From positions 37,807-101,806 of the IMG/VR virus record IMGVR_UViG_3300045988_161046: a stretch of 64,000 nt of DNA; one strand, given 5' to 3'. Of the stretch, positions 4,992 to 60,419 are shown in pieces (the stretch's first letter is position 1; each line of letters starts with the position of its first letter). Below the pieces are notes generated by a model. That model was given only the letters and a program-made list of their open reading frames with translations, did no database searches and was not told the DNA's origin. Source of the DNA: a virus. The translations under genes and the position numbers were made by a program.

Positions 4992-5864
4992 CTACTTCGG
5001 CATACTTGCCAATATCTCCTTCGTAAAGTTCTCATAGTCTTGCCCTACTCTACTGTAAGGCGAATAAGAAAATATATCCTGATTGATAGCCTGCGCTTCC
5101 ACCATCTTCGTATCACGACGAGTATACGAGTCGAACATGTAGTCATCAAACTTATTGCCCAGATACTCCTTAAACTGCTTTGTGGCTCTCGTCTGATCAT
5201 TACTCATTACCATAAACAGACCACGAATATCAATATCAGGGTTCAAGTCTTCTCGCGTTTCCTGTACCGCATTCAGAATTTCGGCAATACCTTTTGTTGC
5301 CAACATTTCAAGCTGGATAGGTATCACTACACCCGATGCAACCGATAGGGCATTATGCGTGAGAAGTGACAAAGCTGGTGGGCAGTCAATCAATACATAG
5401 TCGAAAGCCTCCAGGATAGAAGATACTCCCTCATTTATCAGTTCATCACCCCGAACTTCGGTCAAAGGCTTGCCGAATAACTTAAACAAAGCCTTGCGTG
5501 GTACCGGCATCTGATTGAGGAATGGTTCGATATTGATAAGGCGATAAGATGCTGGAGCAAGATAGATACCTTCCCTTACCTGGTAAACAGGCAAGCGGGA
5601 TTGCTGTATCATCGCATCGTACATGGTAGGCTGCCCCATATTCTCTGCCTCACTCCATCCAAAGAGGAAGGAAAGGCTCGACTGCGGATCGAGGTCGATG
5701 AGCAAGATACGAGGCTTGCGCTCCTTGCCGTTTTCACCCTTGCCAAAGTAACCCTTGCCATAACGACGAAGACCAGTTGCTAAACTCTGTACGGTTGTTG
5801 TCTTACCAACTCCTCCCTTGTGATTTACGAAGGCGAGGATTTCTTTTAATCTTGTTTCTGCCAT
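4992..5864 (-). CDS. parA: ParA/Soj-family partition ATPase
   Basis: Deviant Walker A NHKGGVGKTTT; Walker B-like VLIDCPP. Confidence 0.85.
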   Translation of the reverse strand: MAETRLKEILAFVNHKGGVGKTTTVQSLATGLRRYGKGYFGKGENGKERKPRILLIDLDPQSSLSFLFGWSEAENMGQPTMYDAMIQQSRLPVYQVREGIYLAPASYRLINIEPFLNQMPVPRKALFKLFGKPLTEVRGDELINEGVSSILEAFDYVLIDCPPALSLLTHNALSVASGVVIPIQLEMLATKGIAEILNAVQETREDLNPDIDIRGLFMVMSNDQTRATKQFKEYLGNKFDDYMFDSYTRRDTKMVEAQAINQDIFSYSPYSRVGQDYENFTKEILASMPK

Positions 5865-5985
5865 AATCTTAAAAGTATTAATTCTTTTATATATATTAAT
5901 GTATTCATTTCTTTGTTGAAAGAAAGAAAGCTATATTTTTTTCTTTCAATAAACACACTAACGCATCCACACATAAATACACATT

Positions 5986-6282
5986 TGTGCTTTTCTGCTT
6001 TTGTGGAAACATGCTTTTGTGTTTTAATGCCGCAAAGTTAAGATTTTAATTTTAAACCGCCAAATGTTTTTAATATTTTTAATGCTTTTATGTATGGATT
6101 GATGTATTGAAAGGAATAAACTAACAAATCAATCAAGAAATAAACCAATGAACGAACAAAGAAACAAACAAATGAAGAAACAAAGAAAGAAATTAATCAA
6201 TAAATACACAAACACATAAATACATAAACACATAAACGTGTGTTTATGTATGCTTTTATGTATTTGCGTTTTTATGCTTTTC
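5986..6282. repeat. TGCTTTT(N)TG short repeats flanking the parA promoter (centromere/operator candidates)
   Basis: Copies near 5986, 5994, 6010, 6081, 6249, 6272; plus palindrome cataaacaca-N6-tgtgtttatg at 6221-6246. Confidence 0.3.
6033..6064 (-). promoter_or_regulatory. Class-I promoter (TTTGGCGGTT, 20-nt gap, TAACTTTG) for the parA operon
   Basis: Canonical Bacteroidota -33 TTTG / -7 TAnnTTTG with a 20-nt gap. Confidence 0.55.
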
Positions 6283-6389: not shown

Positions 6390-6536
6390 GTGTTGAATGT
6401 TGAGTGTTAAATGTTGAATTTGGCTAGCGCCCTTGAGCCTGGTGGGGGACCAGCGATAGAATCGCTGGGGACGGGGGCGATAGGAAGAAACGCAACCCCG
6501 ATAGACTAATTCAACATTCAACACTCAACATTGAAA
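6390..6536. repeat. Class-C palindrome C1: (GTTGART)n arms 6390-6420 / 6509-6536 enclosing Class-A copy
   Basis: gtgttgaatgttgagtgttaaatgttgaatt ... aattcaacattcaacactcaacattgaa. Confidence 0.85.
6447..6479 (+). repeat. Class-A hairpin element copy 2
   Basis: ggaccagcgatagaatcgctggggacgggggcg. Confidence 0.9.
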
Positions 6537-21610: not shown

Positions 21611-22276
21611 ATGAAGAAACTGGATATAAAAAGAGCCTTGCGTGAACATCACATGACGCAGGTTGAACTTTGCAAGAGAACCGGATTGCTTACTCAGAAC
21701 ATGAGTCCGATCATAAACGGCAATCCTACCATCTCTAAACTCTTCCAAGTAGCCGAAGGCATCGGCTGCGACATCACCGACCTCTTCTATCCCGACCCTG
21801 CGGAAGAAGCAGAGGAGAGAGACAAGGCACTCGAAAACGCAAAGAATAGCAAGATGCCGCTGGAACTTATTCTGCGTGACCTGACAAGAAGAGCCTATCC
21901 TAGCATCACGAAAGAGGAAATGGAGGAATGGATGGATGTCATCAGAAATAAGAATATGGTTCCTTGGTTTGATATAAATCCAAGCCAAATGGGTCTGCAG
22001 AATGCGATGGATAAGCTAAGACAATTCGAAGAGGCTAGAAAGAAGCATGAGGGCGAAACTCTGAACGAAACGCTGCGGGGCGATTTGCCGGAAGGTATCA
22101 TCAGCAGAGATGTGAAGTTTGTGCAGCAGGGAGCAGGGAGCGAGCCATCCTATCAGGTTCACGAAAACGGACTGGAATCAGAAAACCAGCAGCAAATAAT
22201 TCAGACTTCCACCTTCTGCCCTCACTGCGGCAAGAAAGTAAGGGTAGGAGTGGTATTATTAAATGTTGAATGTTGA
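21611..22276 (+). CDS. XRE/Cro-CI family HTH regulator with C-terminal zinc-ribbon-like CPHCGKK (repressor candidate)
   Basis: MKKLDIKRALREHHMTQVELCKRTGLLTQNMSPIINGNPTISKLFQVAEGIGCDITDLFY; start moved from 21566 to 21611. Confidence 0.75.
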   Translation: MKKLDIKRALREHHMTQVELCKRTGLLTQNMSPIINGNPTISKLFQVAEGIGCDITDLFYPDPAEEAEERDKALENAKNSKMPLELILRDLTRRAYPSITKEEMEEWMDVIRNKNMVPWFDINPSQMGLQNAMDKLRQFEEARKKHEGETLNETLRGDLPEGIISRDVKFVQQGAGSEPSYQVHENGLESENQQQIIQTSTFCPHCGKKVRVGVVLLNVEC

Positions 22277-22293
22277 GTGTTGAATGTTGAATG
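22263..22293. repeat. Class-C single arm C2
   Basis: atgttgaatgttgagtgttgaatgttgaatg; no partner arm nearby. Confidence 0.75.
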
Positions 22294-37379: not shown

Positions 37380-40184
37380 TTACAGGGCGTACACTGTTAA
37401 CTCAACCTCGCCCATTCCCGTCTTGGCATCGATGGTGGTGTTTACCTTGTCTATGAGGCATTTCATACCGCCTATATTCCACCATTCCTGCCAGTGGTTC
37501 GGTATATCGGCCACTTGCGCTACGGTGGTGGTACATCTCACCATAAACTTCTTTCTGTTTAAGAGGAAGTAAGCGTAGGGGAGGACGAAGGTATCAAAGA
37601 GGCCACGGGAGCGAACCTTCTTAACCACCTTACCATTTTTATCTACCTCATCTTTATCACAAAGTACTACATTTTGATACTTCGGATCACTCAACCACGA
37701 TGGTTCCTTGAAAGCACGTATCTTGAGTGAGAATTTTTCACCTTCGCCCGTTCCTTCCTGAATACCATTATAGTCAAATTCATTACCCATCATATCCAAT
37801 GAATCGCATGCCAGGGCATACTTACCAGATACGGTACGCCATTTGGACGTTCCGAAGTGGTCGTAATTATAATCGTAAGACTGGCGGGTAGCATCGCTAC
37901 CACCGCCTCGCATCAAAGCAACCGCATATCCCCAGCGTGAATCATCCTGCAACGGAGAGTTGCCATCATCGGTGCTCGAAGGGTCGTAGCTTTCTACGAG
38001 TGATAGTGTCTGCTGCATGTAGAAATCACAGAAAGCAGTAGAGATAGTCTGATTGATAATCTGCTCCACAAACTCATGCTCCATATCCTCATCTACATAA
38101 GCACAGAGGATAGGCTGACCGTCAGCGATAGTTACACCATATTTCTTGCCGTTGTAGGAGTCGATTGCCTCGTGAGAGCCATAGGCAGCTTCTATCTCTT
38201 TGAAATAGTTCACGTCATTAAACGGAACAGGAGTAAAATCTACCGAAATATCGTGAACGAAATCTTTGTTCTCATCACTGCAATCTCCATATTCTACACC
38301 CTTGAACTGACCTACTTCAAAGAGTACCGGTTTCAAGTCGGCTGTCGTGGTTGCATCACTATTCACTTTTACGCGATAAGCGTTGCCAGTCTTGCGGTCG
38401 ATATAGCAGTGCTTATCTCCACTACTCAGATTATGGAAGAAATCGATGTAGTCGAGATTGTAGACCGTGGAATTATCGCCACTATCGGGCGCAGGGTAAT
38501 CGATGTAGTCGTAATCGGTAGAGTAACCCATATTCTTGTTTCTACGGCTATCGAGTACATTCTGACGCTGATCTTTTGCATCACTCTCTGCAGAATAGCG
38601 CATACGCACACCTGTAATTTTCTCTGTCACCGGAATCATTGAATGAATATTGGCATGAAATGTTCTTGCCTTATCGCCACTCTTGCGCAGCACATCACGG
38701 GTGAGATAGGCTGTTACCTTCTTTTGTTCGTAATCATACGAAAACTTGATACCAAAGGCGCTTTCCAGCGAAGAGATAATGGTGCTTACACTCTCGTCGG
38801 GGAAATTCCCGCTGTTGGCTACCATATTGAGCACGTTCGCCTGAACATTGAACTTGCTGATTTTAGCCTCGATGCTGATACCGGTTACCTTGCCGCCATC
38901 ATCGCGTACCTCACCTACCTGCACATGCTCGGTCGTACCCTCTGGTGTACGGAGGGTCAACTCCTGCACATCCTTATCCTCGGCTTTCACGATATTAATC
39001 TTTCCACCGCAACCGCGGCTTTCGAGCCATGAATTGATATGCTCCTGACTTTGAAAATAACCTGTCTTTATTTCACCAGCTTTCTTCTTCTTGGCGATGA
39101 CTTCGGCATCAGTTTCGCTGTAATAAGTACCATGATGAGGATGTTGAATGGTATCGTAGCTGCATACGGTCGTGAAGAAGCAGAGGTGTTTCAAATCCTC
39201 TATCTCCATTAATGCCTTCTTGTCGAATGTAACACCAAGATAGTCAAAGAGGCAATCGAGGAAATAAAGCACATAGAAGCAGATACCAGACTGCGGGCGT
39301 TTTGCATCCAATACCCAATAAGGATAAAGGTCTTCATTCGTCCAGGTACAATCCTTCATGCTGATAATGCCGCTATCAGTTTTTTTTCCTTCTTCGTCCA
39401 AACCATGATGTTTATAACAGATACGTGCGTTGCAATAAGAAGCGGCTCTACCCGCGCCGTCGGTTTCACCATAGGCTGCGGCGGTATTGATGTAGTTTCC
39501 GTTACTAGCGATGGCAGGCTCATTTACAATGTGGTTCTGGGGATAGGAGCGCTCTGACATAATCTTAGCATCTCCTTTTTTGTGATGGGTGCCTGTAGTA
39601 GTCCATTCCACGCAATTAGCAGGATAAGAGAAACCGAGTGCCTGCGGTTCGAGAACCTTGCTTACGCTTACGTGGGCGGCTCTGATTTCGTGGATTTCCG
39701 TCTTATCATCCTTATGCTTACCTCCGGTAACAAAAACATTTACCTTTACCACAGGGTCGCTCTCTATATCCACCCTCACATTACCTATCTTCTCGCCGAT
39801 GATAATCTGGTCCTTGACCGGAATATCACGACATTGCAGGTCGCTGATAAGCTCGCTGAAACTCTGGGTGCTGGCATCGATGTTCATACTGAGGGAATCG
39901 GTTATCTCCTCATCGTCCTGCATGACCAAGGTACCGCTGCGGAATGGCAGTCCGTCGGCATGAATGCGGGTAGGCAGGTGCTCCATGTTTACGGCTTTTA
40001 CCGCTGCATGCACGTCTTCTATGTTCTTTACCAGCCAGCGGTTGCCATCTAGCGGAATAGAGAAAGGATAGGAGAACATTTCCGTATCGTTGAACACAGG
40101 GTTCTGGTCCTCTATATCTATAGAGAAATCATCGGGCAAAGCTACCGGCTTGTCATTGATTAATATCGTAAGATGCGAGTTCAT
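37380..40184 (-). CDS. large (934 aa) tail/baseplate structural protein
   Basis: ORF track; size and synteny only. Confidence 0.55.
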   Translation of the reverse strand: MNSHLTILINDKPVALPDDFSIDIEDQNPVFNDTEMFSYPFSIPLDGNRWLVKNIEDVHAAVKAVNMEHLPTRIHADGLPFRSGTLVMQDDEEITDSLSMNIDASTQSFSELISDLQCRDIPVKDQIIIGEKIGNVRVDIESDPVVKVNVFVTGGKHKDDKTEIHEIRAAHVSVSKVLEPQALGFSYPANCVEWTTTGTHHKKGDAKIMSERSYPQNHIVNEPAIASNGNYINTAAAYGETDGAGRAASYCNARICYKHHGLDEEGKKTDSGIISMKDCTWTNEDLYPYWVLDAKRPQSGICFYVLYFLDCLFDYLGVTFDKKALMEIEDLKHLCFFTTVCSYDTIQHPHHGTYYSETDAEVIAKKKKAGEIKTGYFQSQEHINSWLESRGCGGKINIVKAEDKDVQELTLRTPEGTTEHVQVGEVRDDGGKVTGISIEAKISKFNVQANVLNMVANSGNFPDESVSTIISSLESAFGIKFSYDYEQKKVTAYLTRDVLRKSGDKARTFHANIHSMIPVTEKITGVRMRYSAESDAKDQRQNVLDSRRNKNMGYSTDYDYIDYPAPDSGDNSTVYNLDYIDFFHNLSSGDKHCYIDRKTGNAYRVKVNSDATTTADLKPVLFEVGQFKGVEYGDCSDENKDFVHDISVDFTPVPFNDVNYFKEIEAAYGSHEAIDSYNGKKYGVTIADGQPILCAYVDEDMEHEFVEQIINQTISTAFCDFYMQQTLSLVESYDPSSTDDGNSPLQDDSRWGYAVALMRGGGSDATRQSYDYNYDHFGTSKWRTVSGKYALACDSLDMMGNEFDYNGIQEGTGEGEKFSLKIRAFKEPSWLSDPKYQNVVLCDKDEVDKNGKVVKKVRSRGLFDTFVLPYAYFLLNRKKFMVRCTTTVAQVADIPNHWQEWWNIGGMKCLIDKVNTTIDAKTGMGEVELTVYAL

Positions 40185-43416: not shown

Positions 43417-43453
43417 TTTTTTTACCTTTTTACTTTTTTACTTTTTTACCTTT
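43417..43453 (-). repeat. Class-B array B7, between portal stop and next ATG
   Basis: tttttttacctttttacttttttacttttttaccttt. Confidence 0.8.
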
Positions 43454-45269
43454 AAGAGACCTCTTGTTTCGCCACTCCGGTCTTCGAGTTATCGAGGGTA
43501 GTCAATACCTCCCGGTCAACCTGCCATACCAGGTGCTCGTCCCAATCGTTGAAGCGGCTCAAGACTTCCAGCGGGCGTATCATCAACTGCTGCAATGGGG
43601 CAAACTGAATCTGCTTGACCAGGAAACGCTCTCTCAGGTCGGTACCGCCAGAGGACGCTGTATCACCAGGGGTGTTGCCGATGAGCTTTGCATCGAGACC
43701 CATGGCAAAGAAGATGATGCTGCTTATTTCCTGTAACTCGGTCTTGTCGGCATTCGCCTGATCATTTGCCTTGGTTTCGATTTCCACGATTTCCCAAGCC
43801 TTGTGCTCCTTTCCGTCGCTTCCCGTAAAGGCAGAAGAGATGAGTGCCTGACCTGCATTATCAGGGTTGGCGAGCCATGTATTGATGGAAGTGAAGATTT
43901 CATTCTGAATCTCACCCTGGGTTTTCTTTTTCTTCTCACCCTGCTGCTGATAGAGCCTGCTGATATAGTCCTGGTGGATATAGATGACACGACCGATGAT
44001 GTTGCTGTTGCGCTTTCGGGTGAGGCGGTCATCTACGATGGTGAAGGCATATTCAAAGATGCTGCCGGCAAAGATGGAGTGCCAAAGGGCATCGGCATAA
44101 TACGGACCACCGAAATCACGTGGCGACATGATGAAGCGGGTAGGGCGTTTCTTGCGGCTTACCTGCTTCTGACGTGCCTCACGTATCTTGCGCTGCAAAT
44201 CCTTTACGGCTGATGTGGTAGGGAGATAAGGGATAGCCGCTATCTTGCGGTCTTCCTCCTTCTGCACACCGACGTATTGGGTTGGGTCGAGCCACTGGTT
44301 GCTGACGTAGGCATAGTTGATGCGGTAGTTCTCGTCCATTCGTTCCAGTCGGGTGGTGAAAATACTGCGATGCTTCAGACCGATTACCTTCGGGGTCCAT
44401 TGAGCGGTAGGAACAGCCTTGCCGTTTTCGTCGAGGGAACGCTGATTAAGCTGAAGTTCTACAAAGCATTGTGACATCAGAGCCATATCTCCTGCCAGGT
44501 CGAGGAAGGTCTGCATCAGGTCGTTATTCTCTATGAAATCACGAAGCTGGGTATTGGTTTCTTCCCATTTGTGGAGGGCTTCTTTCAGAGATTTCATCTC
44601 CTCGCTTTCCTCTTCATCGGAGGATAAGACCTGCGATGAAATCGCAGGGAACGGAGTCTCCTCTTGCTGAGACTGCCCGTTCTGGCTCTGCTGCTCGCTC
44701 TGGCGCTTGGCTTCGGCGGCTGCCTCTTCCTTGGCTTTGAGGTCGGCTATCTGACCACGGAGCAGAACTCCTGCACTCTCGTAGGGGATATATTTCTCTG
44801 TGATGTTTCCGCCTACATACTGGGTATAGTGATACTTTGGGGCGGGACCGCGACCTACCAGTATCTTCTTGATGTAATCAACTCCTGCTGCCGTAAAGGG
44901 CGACATACGGGAGAGCATCCAGATAAGGTTTGGCAGTCGGTTGGACATACCCCATTCCATAAAGCCTAAGCCTTCGGTACCTACGTCTTTCGGTTTACCC
45001 ATGTTCTCGCCGCCACTTGATGCAAAGATTGTGGAGACTTGCTGACGTGCTGCAGAACCGCTTGCGTCGCCACCGCTTGCCGACATACCGGCTGTGGTCA
45101 GGAGCATGCTGTGAACGTAGTCGTTCCAGGAGAAGACTTTACCGCCACCATTCTTAAGCGGCGTAAAGGCATCCGGGCGAACGGCTACATAGCCTGCATC
45201 TTTCAGTTCCTCACTACGCTGTTGGAGCTGCTGCAGGTTGGTTACTCTGTTTCTGTTTTTGCTTGCCAT
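43452..45269 (-). CDS. portal protein
   Basis: 605 aa; C-terminal region ...IIFFAMGLDAKLIGNTPGDTASSGGTDLRERFLVKQIQFAPLQQLMIRPLEVL resembles the conserved portal core. Confidence 0.55.
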   Translation of the reverse strand: MASKNRNRVTNLQQLQQRSEELKDAGYVAVRPDAFTPLKNGGGKVFSWNDYVHSMLLTTAGMSASGGDASGSAARQQVSTIFASSGGENMGKPKDVGTEGLGFMEWGMSNRLPNLIWMLSRMSPFTAAGVDYIKKILVGRGPAPKYHYTQYVGGNITEKYIPYESAGVLLRGQIADLKAKEEAAAEAKRQSEQQSQNGQSQQEETPFPAISSQVLSSDEEESEEMKSLKEALHKWEETNTQLRDFIENNDLMQTFLDLAGDMALMSQCFVELQLNQRSLDENGKAVPTAQWTPKVIGLKHRSIFTTRLERMDENYRINYAYVSNQWLDPTQYVGVQKEEDRKIAAIPYLPTTSAVKDLQRKIREARQKQVSRKKRPTRFIMSPRDFGGPYYADALWHSIFAGSIFEYAFTIVDDRLTRKRNSNIIGRVIYIHQDYISRLYQQQGEKKKKTQGEIQNEIFTSINTWLANPDNAGQALISSAFTGSDGKEHKAWEIVEIETKANDQANADKTELQEISSIIFFAMGLDAKLIGNTPGDTASSGGTDLRERFLVKQIQFAPLQQLMIRPLEVLSRFNDWDEHLVWQVDREVLTTLDNSKTGVAKQEVS

Positions 45270-45368
45270 TTTTTTTGCGTTTCTTTTTTTTATGTTATCC
45301 TGAATATGATTGAAAGAGAGAAGGGTGGCGATATACGCACACCCGCTTTATCTCCTTGTTTCTGAGTG

Positions 45369-45405
45369 TAAAGTTAGGGCTTTTTATGGTTTTGGTGGGG
45401 ACAAA
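45369..45405 (-). promoter_or_regulatory. Class-II promoter (TTTGTCCCC, 25-nt gap, TAACTTTA)
   Basis: Upstream of portal ATG 45269. Confidence 0.45.
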
Positions 45406-45414
45406 GAGGGGAGG

Positions 45415-45446
45415 GGACCAGCGATAGAATCGCTGGGAACGGAGGC
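45415..45446 (+). repeat. Class-A hairpin element copy 6
   Basis: ggaccagcgatagaatcgctgggaacggaggc. Confidence 0.9.
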
Positions 45447-45474
45447 TCCTCTTCTTATTCATAATTAATAATGA

Positions 45475-45567
45475 TCATAAAATCTTTGGCGATGGAGGAG
45501 ATGGCGTTACTGATACCCCCCCCGATTTCTAACCTTTGGGAGTGAGGGTTGGAGTACCAATCACCAT
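45475..45567 (-). pseudogene. degenerate C5-MTase TRD-like cassette c with in-frame TAG and G8 tract
   Basis: Manual translation MVIGTPTLTPKG*KSGGVSVTPSPPSPKIL*; TAG at 45529-45531; C8 at 45516-45523. Confidence 0.35.
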
Positions 45568-45594
45568 CGGCTCTGCCTCTGCTTGCGCAGGTTC

Positions 45595-45777
45595 TTATTC
45601 GTATTGTTGCCATAAAAGATTATCTTTCGTTACGGTGGAAATGCAGTTACTCCAGGGGTAGGAGCTTGGGCGATGATACTTATCCTGATAGCGGCAACCG
45701 CCTCTGTCGCCGTGTATCTTGCGATATGCCTTCGCTTCCTCGGTGCGATAGTGGGTAATGATGGCTTGCTTAATCAT
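45595..45777 (-). CDS. 60-aa protein, paralog of 45944-46120
   Basis: MIKQAIITHY...TKDNLLWQQYE vs MIKILAIHEA...TKDNLLAFRYE; its ATG overlaps the stop of TRD cassette b (ATGATTAA); ORF track gives 45595..45816. Confidence 0.45.
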   Translation of the reverse strand: MIKQAIITHYRTEEAKAYRKIHGDRGGCRYQDKYHRPSSYPWSNCISTVTKDNLLWQQYE

Positions 45778-45934
45778 ACTCCACAAATATTTTGGGATGA
45801 AGTCCACCTCCCCCACATGTATTACAAGCAGGGGCTATGCCTTTTACCGAATACACTCGTTTTGCCAGTTGAAAGCGCTTATCAAAAGGAGGCGTATTCA
45901 GCAAGCCTACTACTATCGTATGTATTTCGTTCAT
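45770..45934 (-). CDS. detached C5-MTase TRD-core mini-ORF b (54 aa)
   Basis: Manual translation ...AKRVYSVKGIAPACNTCGGGGLHPKIFVEYD; resembles the M.HhaI-type TRD core RIYSTRGIAITLSAYGGG. Confidence 0.45.
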   Translation of the reverse strand: MNEIHTIVVGLLNTPPFDKRFQLAKRVYSVKGIAPACNTCGGGGLHPKIFVEYD

Positions 45935-45943
45935 AACTTTTCT

Positions 45944-46120
45944 TTATTCATATCTGAAGGCAAGGAGATTATCCTTCGTGTGGAAGGTACCGATGCACTG
46001 CATCAGGAAGCTGTCACGGAAGAAGATGGCTTTATCACGATAATCGTTGGTGCCAGTCTGCTTGCGTACTTCCTTGGCGTGCTCTGTTCTTGCCTCGTGA
46101 ATGGCTAATATCTTAATCAT
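45944..46120 (-). CDS. 58-aa protein, paralog of 45595-45777
   Basis: Manual translation MIKILAIHEARTEHAKEVRKQTGTNDYRDKAIFFRDSFLMQCIGTFHTKDNLLAFRYE. Confidence 0.4.
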   Translation of the reverse strand: MIKILAIHEARTEHAKEVRKQTGTNDYRDKAIFFRDSFLMQCIGTFHTKDNLLAFRYE

Positions 46121-46206
46121 ATTCTATTAATACAAGGGGTGGCATATCATTAGGGTCATTCTCTTTCTCTTCGGAAGGAGGAATACTGCCTTTATCTATT
46201 ATAACC

Positions 46207-46356
46207 TTATTCATACTCTAATAATATTTTCGGTTTATCAACATCATGCCCTTTGCCCCCCCCACAAAGGCATAGGGCAATACCTTTCGGATGCACGATA
46301 ATGCCATTTTGGGATGGACTATAAGAACCGAGGATAATAGGACGATTACAAATCAT
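46207..46356 (-). CDS. detached C5-MTase TRD-core mini-ORF a (49 aa) containing a G8 tract
   Basis: MICNRPIILGSYSPSQNGIIVHPKGIALCLCGGGKGHDVDKPKILLEYE; its ATG overlaps the MTase TGA (ATGA); C8 at 46256-46263. Confidence 0.45.
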   Translation of the reverse strand: MICNRPIILGSYSPSQNGIIVHPKGIALCLCGGGKGHDVDKPKILLEYE

Positions 46357-47654
46357 TTCTTCTCCAAAAACTGATGATACAAATTATCTAACTTTGGATT
46401 TTGGAACTTGCCGTTCTCTTTCCAGTCATTGAACAGCGGCATGATGATGTCCTCGTGAGCAGAAGAAATCTCCTCCTGCAGTTCTTTTAGAGTGCAATTC
46501 CAAAGATGCGCCTCTTCTATATAAAGAGTGAGGATGGCTTTCAATGCCATTGCATTCTCGTGGCTCGGCTCTATCTCGAACTGATGGAAGACGCAGGTGT
46601 CTTTATCGTTTGCCTGGAGGAATTTGCTGACGGCTTCATCTTTCAGGAAGAACCTTGTATCTACTTCTTCCTGCAACACATCTTCCAGCTTTCTCTTCAG
46701 CGGAATAGGGTCGGGGAACTGGTAATCGAAGGCTACATCTTTTCTCATCGAGAGGCAGAATACTCGGTCGCGGTTCTGCGGAACACCATAGTCTTTGGCA
46801 TTGAGTCTTGCCCATCGGCTTACGTAACCGAGAGATGAGAGCTTATCAAGCCACTTCTGAAAATCGGGCATAAACTTCTCACTTACCAGGGCTGCCACAT
46901 TCTCCTGGAGTAGATACTTCGGTCGCAATACTTCCACGGCATCGGCTACTCGCCACAATAATGCCGAGCGGGTATCGGAACCTTCCTTCAAACCCATCTG
47001 CTTGCCGGCTTGCGATATATCCTGACAAGGTGAGGAATAGGTAAAGAGGTCGATTTCTTGCCCCCCCACATTACGCTTTACCTGTTGCCAGTCGATTTTG
47101 GTTATATCGCCCAAGGCTTTGTCGGCAAACTGCGGAAAGATGAGATTGTGCATCTGACAGGCATACTTATCTATATCGCTCCAGCCTACACACGTCCAGC
47201 GGAAATCAGGGTGCTGCTGGGCGAGGACATCGGCTGCCATCAACTGCGAGTCGTAACCGGAGAAGGTGGTGAGGATAAGTTTCTCGCCATGGTTCTTATC
47301 TACCGGATAGGTAGGGAGTTGGTCTTCTGGGAAGAAATCGGCAAAAAATGAAGTCTGCGCCTCATGCTTCGGTTCTTTCGGGTACCAGAGTTGCTGATAG
47401 ATGGCTGCGAGCACATCTACCACGATGGAGTTACCTGCCTGCTTGTATTGCTGACTGGCTGATACTGCCATATCTTCTGCCTTTCCCTTGCTCTTATAGC
47501 CGGCTACTCGCTCGGCTGCCTGGGCGTTGGTACTTTGCATCGTGCGGATCACATCATCACGCACACCCATCAGTCGAAAACACTCGAAGGGTGTCAGCTT
47601 TCGGATGGCATAAGACTTAATGGTCTTATCCTTGAAATTGAACTTTGTTATCAT
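46353..47654 (-). CDS. DNA cytosine-5 methyltransferase, circularly permuted motif order IX-X-I-IV-VI-VIII
   Basis: IRKLTPFECFRLMGV (IX), QAGNSIVVDV (X), TTFSGYDSQ (I), SSPCQDISQAGK (IV), LLQENVAAL (VI), VPQNRDRVF (VIII), in that order. Confidence 0.85.
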   Translation of the reverse strand: MITKFNFKDKTIKSYAIRKLTPFECFRLMGVRDDVIRTMQSTNAQAAERVAGYKSKGKAEDMAVSASQQYKQAGNSIVVDVLAAIYQQLWYPKEPKHEAQTSFFADFFPEDQLPTYPVDKNHGEKLILTTFSGYDSQLMAADVLAQQHPDFRWTCVGWSDIDKYACQMHNLIFPQFADKALGDITKIDWQQVKRNVGGQEIDLFTYSSPCQDISQAGKQMGLKEGSDTRSALLWRVADAVEVLRPKYLLQENVAALVSEKFMPDFQKWLDKLSSLGYVSRWARLNAKDYGVPQNRDRVFCLSMRKDVAFDYQFPDPIPLKRKLEDVLQEEVDTRFFLKDEAVSKFLQANDKDTCVFHQFEIEPSHENAMALKAILTLYIEEAHLWNCTLKELQEEISSAHEDIIMPLFNDWKENGKFQNPKLDNLYHQFLEKK

Positions 47655-47684
47655 CTTGTTTTGCTCTATAAATCTTTTCTTTGT

Positions 47685-48011
47685 TTATAATTCTACGAAT
47701 ACAAACGGATTGCTGCTGGCTGCCGTGAGTGTATTCACCATTTTACCCCCCCCAACTGTGCGGCTGCGTCTTAGGGCAGAGGTAGGGTAGTTCAAATCGG
47801 CTACACCGGGTGCAGGGCAATCGGTATAGCCTTGCTCTGTAGCCTGACGGATGCGCAGGAATGTTTCTCCTTCTATATCCACGATTTCAAGAAACGGACG
47901 GTCGGAGGTGGAGTATATCCGATAGAGAGAACCATCTGGATAAAAGCCATATCTCTTTCCGTTCAAGATAATCGTTCCTCGCTTGTATTGAGGTTGGTTA
48001 TTGCTACTCAT
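47685..48011 (-). CDS. C5-MTase TRD-like ORF T1, in frame with the downstream MTase across one TAA
   Basis: LRIRQATEQGYTDCPAPGVADLNYPTSALRRSRTVGGGKMVNTLTAAS resembles the ATKKGY...RRGRVG...TLT TRD type; C8 at 47746-47753. Confidence 0.5.
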   Translation of the reverse strand: MSSNNQPQYKRGTIILNGKRYGFYPDGSLYRIYSTSDRPFLEIVDIEGETFLRIRQATEQGYTDCPAPGVADLNYPTSALRRSRTVGGGKMVNTLTAASSNPFVFVEL

Positions 48012-48132
48012 ACTCTATCATTATGCAGTGTGGGCATTTATAATCGGTGGCTCTGAGCGCAGAAGAAAGCTCCCCCCCATTTCTTCCATTCCTGTTTACG
48101 GCTCAAAGGGTGTACAGATGCCTTTACATCTA

Positions 48133-49239
48133 TCATTTGTTCCTCCTCATCTTTTCCATTTCCTCATTCTCTTTCGACAACCTTTCGAGATGTTCGAGAA
48201 CGAGGGAATAAGACTGAGTATTGACCTGATCTTCCGTTAGGCCGACATACTTCTGCATCGTAGCGGTGGTGACGGTGTAGATCTCCATCGGGGTTTGCGG
48301 CTTGGTGTTGTTTGCCTTCTGTACCTTGAACACGTGAGGGTAGCGATGAGCTAGGGTGTGCATGATGCCCGTCCACCAGAAGAGGATGACCTGCCAGTTT
48401 GCCTCTGGGAAATTGACGAAATACTTTGCGTTCTCGGTGAACTGCTTTGACTCGTAATGAAAATCGTATTTCGTGATGCCTGTTGTCGGATCGACGTACT
48501 GGGTGGTGGTGTTGAAGATGGTGGCAAGGAACATGTTTCTGGCGCTAGCTACGCTCTGAGCTTGCGTCTGAAGTTGCTCCTCGATGAACTTATCCATCTG
48601 CTTCATCTTTACCAGGTTATTGCTTAACTTGGTGTAGGTCTGCATCATATCGCTAGCAAAACGGTATTGCTGCCAGGAAAAGCCATCGAGGTCTGTACTC
48701 GGACCGCGGAAGGCTTTGGCACGACGATACCACTTGGCTTTCTGTCCGATGAGCGGATAGGGGAAGAGGGTGAGGAAATTGCCGCTGTCTGCATCCAGCC
48801 AGTCGAGAAGACCTGCGCCCTGAGCGATATACTCAGGGGAGGTTTTATCCTTGGTCTTGGCTTTCGGAGAGAGCCAATAGTTGAGCTGCCAAAGATAGAG
48901 GGGAAAGTGGCTGCCGGACTGCGGACCAGCGATAGAATCGCTGGGAACGGGGGCGCAGAGGGAGAGGAGCTTCTTCAGAAGGCTCTTCTTCTGCGGCTCT
49001 ATGCTTACCAGGTAGTGCTGCTCATTGATAGGCATGCGAGGGTCGGGATAGGCATTGATGCCTATTCCGGCAAAAAGGAAGAAAACGGCTATCTTCACCT
49101 TCTGCATATCGAAGGGGTGATAGCGGTCTGCCTTGGCTATCTGCTCCAGCATGATGAGGGCAATCTGCTCCAGCTGGGTAGGGGTGCATTGGTTCCAGCC
49201 GCGGGGGATGGTGAGGTTTATCTGTTCTTGCATAATCAT
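48133..49239 (-). CDS. hypothetical protein carrying an in-frame Class-A element
   Basis: ORF track; residues ...CAPVPSDSIAGPQ... are encoded by repeat 48923-48955. Confidence 0.55.
   Translation of the reverse strand: MIMQEQINLTIPRGWNQCTPTQLEQIALIMLEQIAKADRYHPFDMQKVKIAVFFLFAGIGINAYPDPRMPINEQHYLVSIEPQKKSLLKKLLSLCAPVPSDSIAGPQSGSHFPLYLWQLNYWLSPKAKTKDKTSPEYIAQGAGLLDWLDADSGNFLTLFPYPLIGQKAKWYRRAKAFRGPSTDLDGFSWQQYRFASDMMQTYTKLSNNLVKMKQMDKFIEEQLQTQAQSVASARNMFLATIFNTTTQYVDPTTGITKYDFHYESKQFTENAKYFVNFPEANWQVILFWWTGIMHTLAHRYPHVFKVQKANNTKPQTPMEIYTVTTATMQKYVGLTEDQVNTQSYSLVLEHLERLSKENEEMEKMRRNK
48923..48955 (+). repeat. Class-A hairpin element copy 7 (inside CDS)
   Basis: ggaccagcgatagaatcgctgggaacgggggcg. 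Confidence 0.9.
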
Positions 49240-49246
49240 TTTTTTT

Positions 49247-49341
49247 AGTGTTGATTGTTGAGTGTTGAATGTTGAATTGCCTCACGGACTCGATGGCGTA
49301 TTCCTAATTCAACATTCAACACTCAACATTCAACACTCAAT
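49247..49341. repeat. Class-C palindrome C3
   Basis: Arms 49247-49278 / 49306-49341; loop contains cctcacggac. Confidence 0.85.
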
Positions 49342-60010: not shown

Positions 60011-60292
60011 TCATCCTCTCAAAACCTTATTTCCTGTAGGTAAAAACGTGAGGTTTCTCAGTCGTTCCAGCGAAGGATATTGCTGATTTACTCTGTCTCT
60101 GAAATCGTCCATATCGCCCATGTATACCATATATTTTCCCAATGCCATATCAAAGTTCACCGGGAACGTCATCGTGATTTGACGGAGGAATTTACCCCCC
60201 CCAATCATTACATCGAATACAACTTTCTCCCATCGCTGACCTTTCTTGTCGAGCCATGACCCCTTCGGGATTTCTACTTTTCTCTTTGCCAT
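60011..60292 (-). CDS. hypothetical protein containing a G8 tract
   Basis: ORF track; C8 at 60195-60202 encodes IGGGK. Confidence 0.5.
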   Translation of the reverse strand: MAKRKVEIPKGSWLDKKGQRWEKVVFDVMIGGGKFLRQITMTFPVNFDMALGKYMVYMGDMDDFRDRVNQQYPSLERLRNLTFLPTGNKVLRG

Positions 60293-60330: not shown

Positions 60331-60419
60331 ATGTTGAGTGTTGAGTGTTGAATGTTGAATTAGGCTAGCGCCCTTGAGTCCGTCAGACAATTCAACATTC
60401 AACATTTAACATTAAACAT
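60331..60419. repeat. Class-C palindrome C4
   Basis: Arms 60331-60361 / 60389-60419; loop ggctagcgcccttgagtccgtcagac. Confidence 0.85.

Follow-up and report, generated by a model that had tools for sequence, protein, structure and literature searches.

A circularly permuted phage C5-methyltransferase core without a target recognition domain, flanked by separately encoded recognition units with poly-G tracts

Among described C5-methyltransferases (C5-MTases), M.(phi)BssHII and M.BssHII are the closest in architecture to the enzyme analysed here, a likeness drawn from their description. The present enzyme is encoded in a 64,000-nucleotide (nt) stretch of viral DNA, positions 37,807 to 101,806 of IMG/VR record IMGVR_UViG_3300045988_161046 (called the window below, its coordinates being used unless another record is named), where a catalytic core gene is flanked on both sides by small open reading frames (ORFs), here called minigenes, that correspond to single units of target recognition domains (TRDs). 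M.(phi)BssHII (Sethmann et al. 1999, EMBO J 18:3502) reportedly has motifs IX and X ahead of motifs I–VIII, is multispecific, and carries TRDs at two sites flanking the core. The TRDs of M.(phi)BssHII lie within one polypeptide, whereas in the window each TRD unit is an ORF of its own, most of them with a poly-G tract. Natural circularly permuted C5-MTases, known as Type H, comprise M.BssHII, M.Alw26I, M2.Eco31I, M.Esp3I, and M2.BsaI (PMC5944983). In these enzymes motif X precedes motif I and the chain is cut in the variable region, as is the case here, but the TRD is kept in the same chain.

The Bacillus phage MTases SPR, phi3T, rho11s, and H2, studied in the Trautner laboratory, as well as metagenomic multi-TRD enzymes such as P0132 and those of Dulem virus 39 and Dulem virus 40, carry tandem TRD units of ~40–60 residues, each of which ends with a hydrophobic strand followed by Glu and is homologous to the minigenes of the window. 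These multispecific enzymes are likewise phage-borne, presumably to evade many restriction–modification (R-M) systems. However, they follow the canonical order of motifs I–X or are split into α and β parts (Dulem virus 40), and their TRDs are covalently linked, with no switch for the individual TRD. Several different TRD units per enzyme, the hallmark of the Trautner type, are found here at the level of the locus and not in one chain. Split C5-MTases (M.AquI α/β, the products of genes 0019 and 0020 of Streptococcus phage Javan179, and artificial fragment pairs; PMC5944983, PMC3404938) are put together from parts that are each translated on their own, with the cut lying in the variable region. 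Splits of the M.AquI type consist of two pieces, with the TRD staying on IX-X, whereas here the TRD alone is detached and exists in about 8–14 alternative versions.

A different kind of likeness is provided by phase-variable MTases (phasevarions; Type I hsdS and Type III mod) and by poly-G contingency loci (PMC4889913, PMC11868660). Coding homopolymer tracts toggle the expression of phasevarions, and in Type I systems specificity resides in a subunit apart from the shared catalytic one; both features are proposed for the locus described here. Phasevarions, however, are bacterial amino-MTases, whereas the system proposed here would be a phage C5-MTase whose many specificity peptides can be switched independently of one another. 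Poly-G tracts occur in Campylobacter phages. No account of TRD minigenes detached from their core, or of a phage C5-MTase switched by poly-G tracts, was found in the open-access literature. The explanation favoured here, with moderate confidence and on the strength of sequence comparison, is that a permuted, TRD-less catalytic subunit would be served in trans by separately translated, individually phase-variable TRD peptides.

The core gene (46353–47654, complementary strand) encodes 433 residues that match the Pfam family DNA_methylase (PF00145) with an E value of 1e-50. Residues 8–89 of the core correspond to profile positions 269–322, comprising motifs IX and X, and residues 154–352 correspond to profile positions 23–219. 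The resulting order of elements is IX-X-linker-I-IV-VI-VIII, followed by a C-terminal helical region; with IX-X placed before I in one chain and the cut located in the variable region, the core is circularly permuted. The catalytic motifs SSPCQ (IV), QENV (VI), and QNRDRVF (VIII), as well as IRKLTPFEC (IX) and QAGNSIVV (X), are all present. The mapping of residues onto the Pfam profile agrees with a preliminary description of this locus, made from the DNA sequence alone, which had proposed a permuted core lacking a TRD, although motif I deviates, as discussed below. On the 3′ side of motif VIII the core retains the usual short segment (F.FP...LEDVL.EEVD..FFLKD), after which ~80 residues are predicted to be helical. 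No TRD is present between motifs VIII and IX within the core chain, and alignments with TRD units gave no match inside it. The permuted, TRD-less form is kept in hundreds of metagenome proteins of 432–445 residues with 70–98% identity, carried on contigs of about 95–110 kb. A β-hairpin is predicted at the N terminus of the core (residues 2–15). We can speculate that docking is what this hairpin, together with the C-terminal helical region peculiar to the core, might have evolved for.

Eight minigenes flank the core on the same strand, two upstream (T0 and T1) and six downstream, and seven of them, belonging to six families, have TRD homology. T0 (48004–48136, family F11, ..SPALRATDYKCPHCIMIEYE type) has a homologous unit in protein P0199 and an intact version in locus L010; in the window it is OFF, with the frame broken at a G7 tract (48072–48078), and its stop overlaps the ATG of T1. 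T1 (47685–48011, family F05, 108 residues, ..IRQATEQGY..RRSRTVGGGKMVNTLT..FVFVEL), which is in frame and contains a G8 tract (47746–47753), is homologous to units in D40b of Dulem virus 40 and in proteins P0163, P0166, and P0172. Downstream, minigene a (46207–46356, family F02, 49 residues, with a G8 tract at 46256–46263) starts in an ATGA overlap with the stop of the core and is related to the F06 profile (89.6% probability). It is followed, with an 8-nt overlap, by x33 (46113–46214, family F14), which encodes an acidic peptide of 33 residues with a ..LVLIEYD tail. Next comes p58 (45944–46120, family F00, RTEHAK..RKQTGTNDYRDK..TKDNLL type), 44–53% identical to units inside the PF00145 proteins P0132, P0166, P0167, P0168, P0179, and P0199. 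Minigene b (45770–45934, family F06, ..RVYSVKGIAPACNTCGGGG..KIFVEYD) has an interrupted G tract, G5AGG, at 45810–45814, and is overlapped by 8 nt by p73 (45595–45777, family F00, 60 residues from its own ATG). The last member of the array, c52 (45455–45613, family F04, 52 residues, RGR..QRLEI..SN.I.S..KD type, ..CASRGRADGDWYSNPHSQRLEIGGGISNAISSIAKDFMIIINYE), contains a G8 tract (45516–45523). T1, the core, a, b, and c52 are in frame in the window.

The preliminary description had listed T1, a, and b, which do exist at these positions, but the array is larger, since x33, the intact c52, and the frameshifted T0 also belong to it. The region of c52 had been taken for a degenerate cassette because it was read in the wrong frame, while the real ORF is intact and conserved. 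Similarly, p58 and p73 had been presented as two paralogous ORFs of ~59 residues accompanying the cassettes; they are indeed paralogous (46% identical), but the F00 profile and alignments with multi-TRD proteins identify both as TRD units themselves. Comparison of the small ORFs with C5-MTase TRDs, which had been suggested as a check, revealed homology for all minigenes of the window except x33.

The homology of the minigenes to TRD units is established by several comparisons. Each of T0, T1, a, b, p58, p73, and c52 aligns to a unit in multi-TRD MTase proteins. For family F04, to which c52 belongs, annotated phage C5-MTases give matches in their variable region with E values of 3e-9 to 8e-9, at 56–62% identity over 84–88% of the cassette. 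Minigene b matches 68 phage records, nearly all within C5-MTase genes, including those of the multispecific enzymes of Bacillus phages H2 and rho11s, and it aligns to residues 238–257 of M.HhaI. A profile of family F00, built from the two copies in the window and used in a hidden Markov model search of 1.84e9 representative proteins, found 83 proteins, mostly stand-alone ORFs of 45–113 residues. The same profile also matches long PF00145 proteins inside their multi-TRD region, namely P0132 (612 residues), P0166, P0167, P0168, P0179, and P0199. Successive units in these long proteins end with ..ILEP, ..VLEP, or ..IVEP, the same combination of a strand and Glu that is seen at the ends of the minigenes. 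Additionally, the minigenes retain the recognition-loop signatures of active TRDs (TLT, SN.LT..KDN, and RVYS..G..P).

Other searches were less informative. Pfam gave no matches for the eight small ORFs and no meaningful gain on artificial fusions of cassettes with IX-X, evaluated with shuffled controls, because the variable region contributes little to the information held in the model. Searched against PDB sequences, the F06 profile gave only a weak match to the TRD of M.MpeI (E 1.4), and F04 against PDB sequence profiles gave only spurious lectin repeats. A tblastn search with p73 against phages returned no MTase matches, a gap that was closed by the F00 profile search described above.

The MTase of Dulem virus 40 is split into an α gene with motifs I–VIII and a 373-residue β gene, D40b, in which units of the F01, F06, F04, F05, F03, F09, and F16 types stand in tandem before IX-X. 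Families F05, F03, and F09, the units nearest to motif IX in D40b, are those found upstream of the core here, and F01, F06, and F04 lie downstream of it. Such an order would fit the classical duplication-and-truncation route to circular permutation, applied in this case to a whole α–β gene pair.

The array was compared in 80 related viral loci together with the window, giving 81 loci. On the coding strand of these loci there are 609 small ORFs ending with YD, YE, or EL, and the opposite strand is without such enrichment. The minigenes cluster into about 20 families of 33–108 residues, with a median of nine and up to 14 per locus. T1, a, b, p58, p73, x33, and c52 are all conserved, even in loci whose core is only ~70% identical. 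Families F03, F05 (T1), F09, F11, and F13 occur mainly or only upstream of the core, and F00, F02 (a), F04, F06 (b), F07, F08, F12, and F14 only or almost only downstream of it. The combination of minigenes is unique to almost every locus; their order is largely colinear between loci, and gains and losses take place exactly at the junctions. In many contigs these small ORFs have also been called by public annotation, which names them only as hypothetical proteins.

An exact 8-nt overlap of stop and start (tATGAnTRR) is present in 281 of ~390 neighboring pairs, with TAA, TGA, and TAG all in use as stops. Every minigene ends with ..ΦΦΦEY[ED] or ..VEL. The terminal Tyr-Glu/Asp is partly dictated by the ATG embedded at the junction, whereas the hydrophobic strand and the Glu preceding the terminal residues are a feature of the protein. 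No terminator-like site was found on the coding strand within the array. The TRDs are not contiguous with the core in one chain, since one unit is divided from the next by a stop/start overlap and the reading frame changes between successive ORFs; every TRD unit is a separate ORF with its own ATG and stop, and none is kept at either the N or the C terminus of the core. The conserved ATG at each junction favors initiation over recoding. The proposal of alternative TRD modules encoded separately around the core, put forward in the preliminary description, has thus gained support from homologues in multispecific MTases, from recurrence in the 80 loci, and from purifying selection.

The latter is evident from pairwise dN/dS ratios of 0.08–0.37 for 15 minigene families, compared with 0.10 for the core; the values are 0.10 for the T1 family, 0.08 for the a family, and 0.14 for the x33 family. 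ORF boundaries are retained across cores that are about 30% diverged. The minigene families are under purifying selection, and the array is therefore not the product of simple decay, to which an ordinary linear MTase at this locus in close relatives would have pointed according to the preliminary description.

Of the six runs of at least seven G or C bases in the window, five are located within the 2.7-kb array, all with G on the coding strand (T0 G7, T1 G8, core G7 at 47061–47067, a G8, and c52 G8), compared with 0.11 expected (Poisson P about 1e-7). GGG accounts for only 3% of Gly codons in large ORFs. The loci together contain 177 G runs of seven bases or more, compared with ten C runs. At homologous sites the length of the tract varies from 5 to 11, with G5, G8, and G11 in frame and G6, G7, G9, and G10 out of frame, and the share of out-of-frame loci differs between minigenes, from about 15 to 50%. 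One and the same minigene, for instance, is in frame with G8 in locus L004 and out of frame with G9 in L007. Coding indels between close relatives fall at G tracts, and the tracts of T1 and a are extra Gly codons inserted relative to canonical homologues. In 25 of 26 close loci the core keeps its G7, whereas the tracts of the minigenes vary; versions of the core frameshifted at its G7 tract are found in P0106 and in L023 (G8). Over-representation of tracts inside coding sequences, together with a length polymorphism that toggles the frame between assemblies, is the signature of contingency loci, and switching within a phage population would be its expected counterpart. The earlier proposal of switchable specificity had made no mention of these tracts, which set the frame and lend it substance.

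Put together, these features suggest that the methylase system protecting the DNA of this ~100-kb gut phage may be a multispecific C5-MTase taken apart. One gene (46353–47654) would make the catalytic subunit, with IX-X joined N-terminally to I–VIII and without a TRD, and the TRD units, which stand in tandem in one polypeptide of related enzymes, would be made from separate genes for 33–108 residues that flank the core on either side. With 8-nt stop/start overlaps linking one to the next, these genes are probably translated by termination–reinitiation from one transcript. The end of each peptide (a hydrophobic strand and E-Y-[ED]) would correspond to the ..ΦΦΦEP end of a unit located directly before motif IX. 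One peptide at a time would dock on what remains of the small domain of the core, composed of motif IX, the predicted N-terminal β-hairpin, and the segment that follows motif VIII, and such docking would yield a pool of holoenzymes differing in sequence specificity, with multispecific methylation as the likely outcome. Most minigenes, as well as the core, carry a G7–G9 run in their coding sequence; because slippage at such a run changes the frame, each specificity, or the whole enzyme, could be independently switched on or off. Separate, coupled ORFs would let slippage remove one specificity and spare IX-X and the other specificities, whereas in a single-chain enzyme such as D40b it would destroy IX-X and all other specificities. 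A plausible benefit would be bet-hedging, since a methylated motif protects against a Type II system and can expose the DNA to methyl-dependent restriction.

A precedent for this explanation is that natural and artificial split C5-MTases do complement (PMC5944983). Several observations weigh against it. No activity was obtained when an artificial [IX-X-I-VIII] fragment, from M.MpeI or M.SssI, was combined with the isolated TRD fragment (PMC5944983), and the use of a bare TRD in trans is therefore not trivially possible. In an AlphaFold2 model of P0090, a natural fusion of the core with a, the mean predicted local distance difference test score (pLDDT) is 64.5, that of the cassette is below 35, and no interface is predicted. 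Motif I of the core reads FSGYDS in place of FxGxG, with the second Gly replaced; this variant is near-invariant among relatives, and the Pfam alignment begins downstream of motif I. For x33, there is no recognizable recognition loop and no TRD homologue among the units of multi-TRD proteins; its possible roles are those of an "empty" module or of a regulator in competition for the core. Finally, the differences in tract length are those between consensus assemblies, and some of them could be homopolymer errors. The fullest version of the proposal, in which interchangeable TRD peptides of ~50 residues would act in trans on a common core, each of them switched by its poly-G tract and giving up to 2^n methylomes per population, is put forward tentatively, as one that is somewhat less likely than not.

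In the first alternative, programmed frameshifting, bypassing, or fusion solely through tract slippage would link the minigenes to one another or to the core as they are expressed, yielding an ordinary single-chain permuted multispecific MTase. Fused forms do occur, as in P0090 and in P0122, where a shifted tract lets the N-terminal part of b continue into p73, each ORF lies in the +1 frame relative to the one before it, T1 and the core share a frame in the window with one TAA and ten codons between them, and a single chain would also agree with the failure of isolated TRD fragments to complement (PMC5944983). This explanation nevertheless seems unlikely, as recoding needs no start codon, yet an ATG is found at the identical place in 281 of ~390 junctions, and a +1 shift would meet no slippery codons ahead of the stop (TAT GAN). 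Fusion proteins turn up as rare singletons, whereas stand-alone ORFs form hundreds of clusters, and neither the common frame of T1 and the core nor the adjacency of a and the core is conserved. The latter point also bears on a −1 frameshift at the T5 run, considered earlier as a way of fusing a to the core. Both the ATGA overlap of a with the stop of the core and the T5 run are present in the window, but a is up to three minigenes away from the core in most relatives, and frameshifting at the T5 run was rejected because this adjacency is not conserved. The only fused protein of the core and a, P0090, arises from an indel elsewhere than in the T5 run.

The segment between T1 and the core (47655–47684, complementary strand) deserves a separate remark. 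Readthrough of its TAA would yield a complete TRD-IX-X-I-VIII enzyme; this candidate was rejected, since the in-frame relation holds only in this window and not in its relatives.

It is also conceivable, and in our estimate quite unlikely, that the minigene peptides are functional but are not specificity subunits, and that they instead regulate or inhibit the core or act alone on host R-M proteins or on DNA. A tail without a recognition loop in x33, the lack of predicted docking in the AlphaFold2 model of P0090, and the failure of an isolated TRD to complement (PMC5944983) would be compatible with such a role, whereas a core without a TRD of its own would then be unable to read DNA. Moreover, the minigenes always flank this core, and they have retained the recognition-loop signatures of active TRDs.

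Even less probable appears to be a mechanism like gene conversion of the pilin type, with the minigenes as silent cassettes that recombine into an expression site. Nearly every locus does have a different repertoire, units being gained or lost precisely at the junctions, whose short conserved sequence could direct such an exchange, and chimeric protein P0126 links motif X of the core to p58. All cassettes, however, have their own ATG and stop and the same orientation, the core ORF has no slot for a TRD, the order of minigenes is largely colinear, and the upstream and downstream sets of families are separate. The last alternative, a decaying multispecific MTase broken by frameshifts or a switching that is only homopolymer sequencing error, is highly improbable, and decay in particular has been largely refuted: the out-of-frame tracts are seen only in consensus assemblies and one unit of the window (T0) is frameshifted, but the low dN/dS ratios of the minigene families, identical ORF boundaries across diverged cores, stability of the core G7 while minigene tracts vary, avoidance of GGG codons elsewhere, and insertion of the tracts relative to canonical TRDs all speak against it.

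Returning to a core served by detached peptides, its consequences, if it is true, would be considerable. The TRD peptides would be the C5-MTase counterpart of the HsdS subunits of Type I systems, and combinatorial methylomes would let the phage hedge between methylation-sensitive and methylation-dependent host restriction. Natural free TRD peptides of 5–7 kDa would make the way in which one core uses several TRDs in multispecific C5-MTases directly testable, by combining the core with a single peptide in turn, and they would supply a toolkit of about 20 TRD families for programmable 5-methylcytosine. We know of no earlier case in which a virus puts each of its methylation specificities under phase variation individually, and such switching would bear on the host range and persistence of abundant gut phages. 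Since all minigenes are annotated as hypothetical proteins, the system is currently invisible in databases.

As for its surroundings, the array lies, entirely on the complementary strand, directly upstream of a gene for a portal-like protein of 605 residues (43452–45269), for which only distant relatives were found, in a Polaribacter phage and in an unannotated human faecal phage record. Between them, a 55-residue ORF (45295–45462, complementary strand) has its start in the usual ATGAATAA junction that follows c52 and extends toward the portal gene; it is not TRD-like, is moderately conserved, and may be a leader of that gene. A blastn search of the locus against phage genomes gave no match, and for assignment of a host the only matches were bins of metagenome-assembled genomes (MAGs), two of them labelled Prevotella.

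A few observations concern related loci and proteins. In P0126 (109 residues), residues 1–73 of the core are joined to the C-terminal part of p58 at a shared KQ(A/T)G(T)N; the protein is either a microhomology deletion variant or an assembly chimera. Loci L011 and L015, otherwise ~99% identical, differ by a 1.66-kb insertion (L011, ~585–2243), a suspected mobile element. Bacillus phage Deep Blue has three adjacent C5-MTase genes (72150–77920 of its genome), and a tblastn alignment ran across the junction of the first two because these abut in the same frame. In Streptococcus phage Javan179, where the MTase is split into α and β, the β part (128 residues) starts with an F04-type TRD.

Elsewhere in the window, intergenic inverted repeats composed of the heptamer TTCAACA/TTCAACAT are found at 6391–6530, 22264–22291, 49256–49335, and 60339–60411. 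The pattern has 16 matches, compared with 0.04 expected; the repeats form long intergenic hairpins and could be terminators, regulatory elements, or elements related to packaging. The only run of at least seven G or C bases outside the array, a G8 at 60195–60202, lies in an ORF for 93 residues (60011–60292, complementary strand, ..DVMIGGGKFLRQ..), which may be another phase-variable gene. A rabbit-gut MAG (Lapin, locus L092), tried as a distant permuted relative, was rejected as such, since its C5-MTase (5043–6181 of that record) has the canonical order of motifs. The gene is apparently broken in the variable region, with a G7 run near the break, which hints at poly-G switching of C5-MTase TRDs beyond this group of phages.

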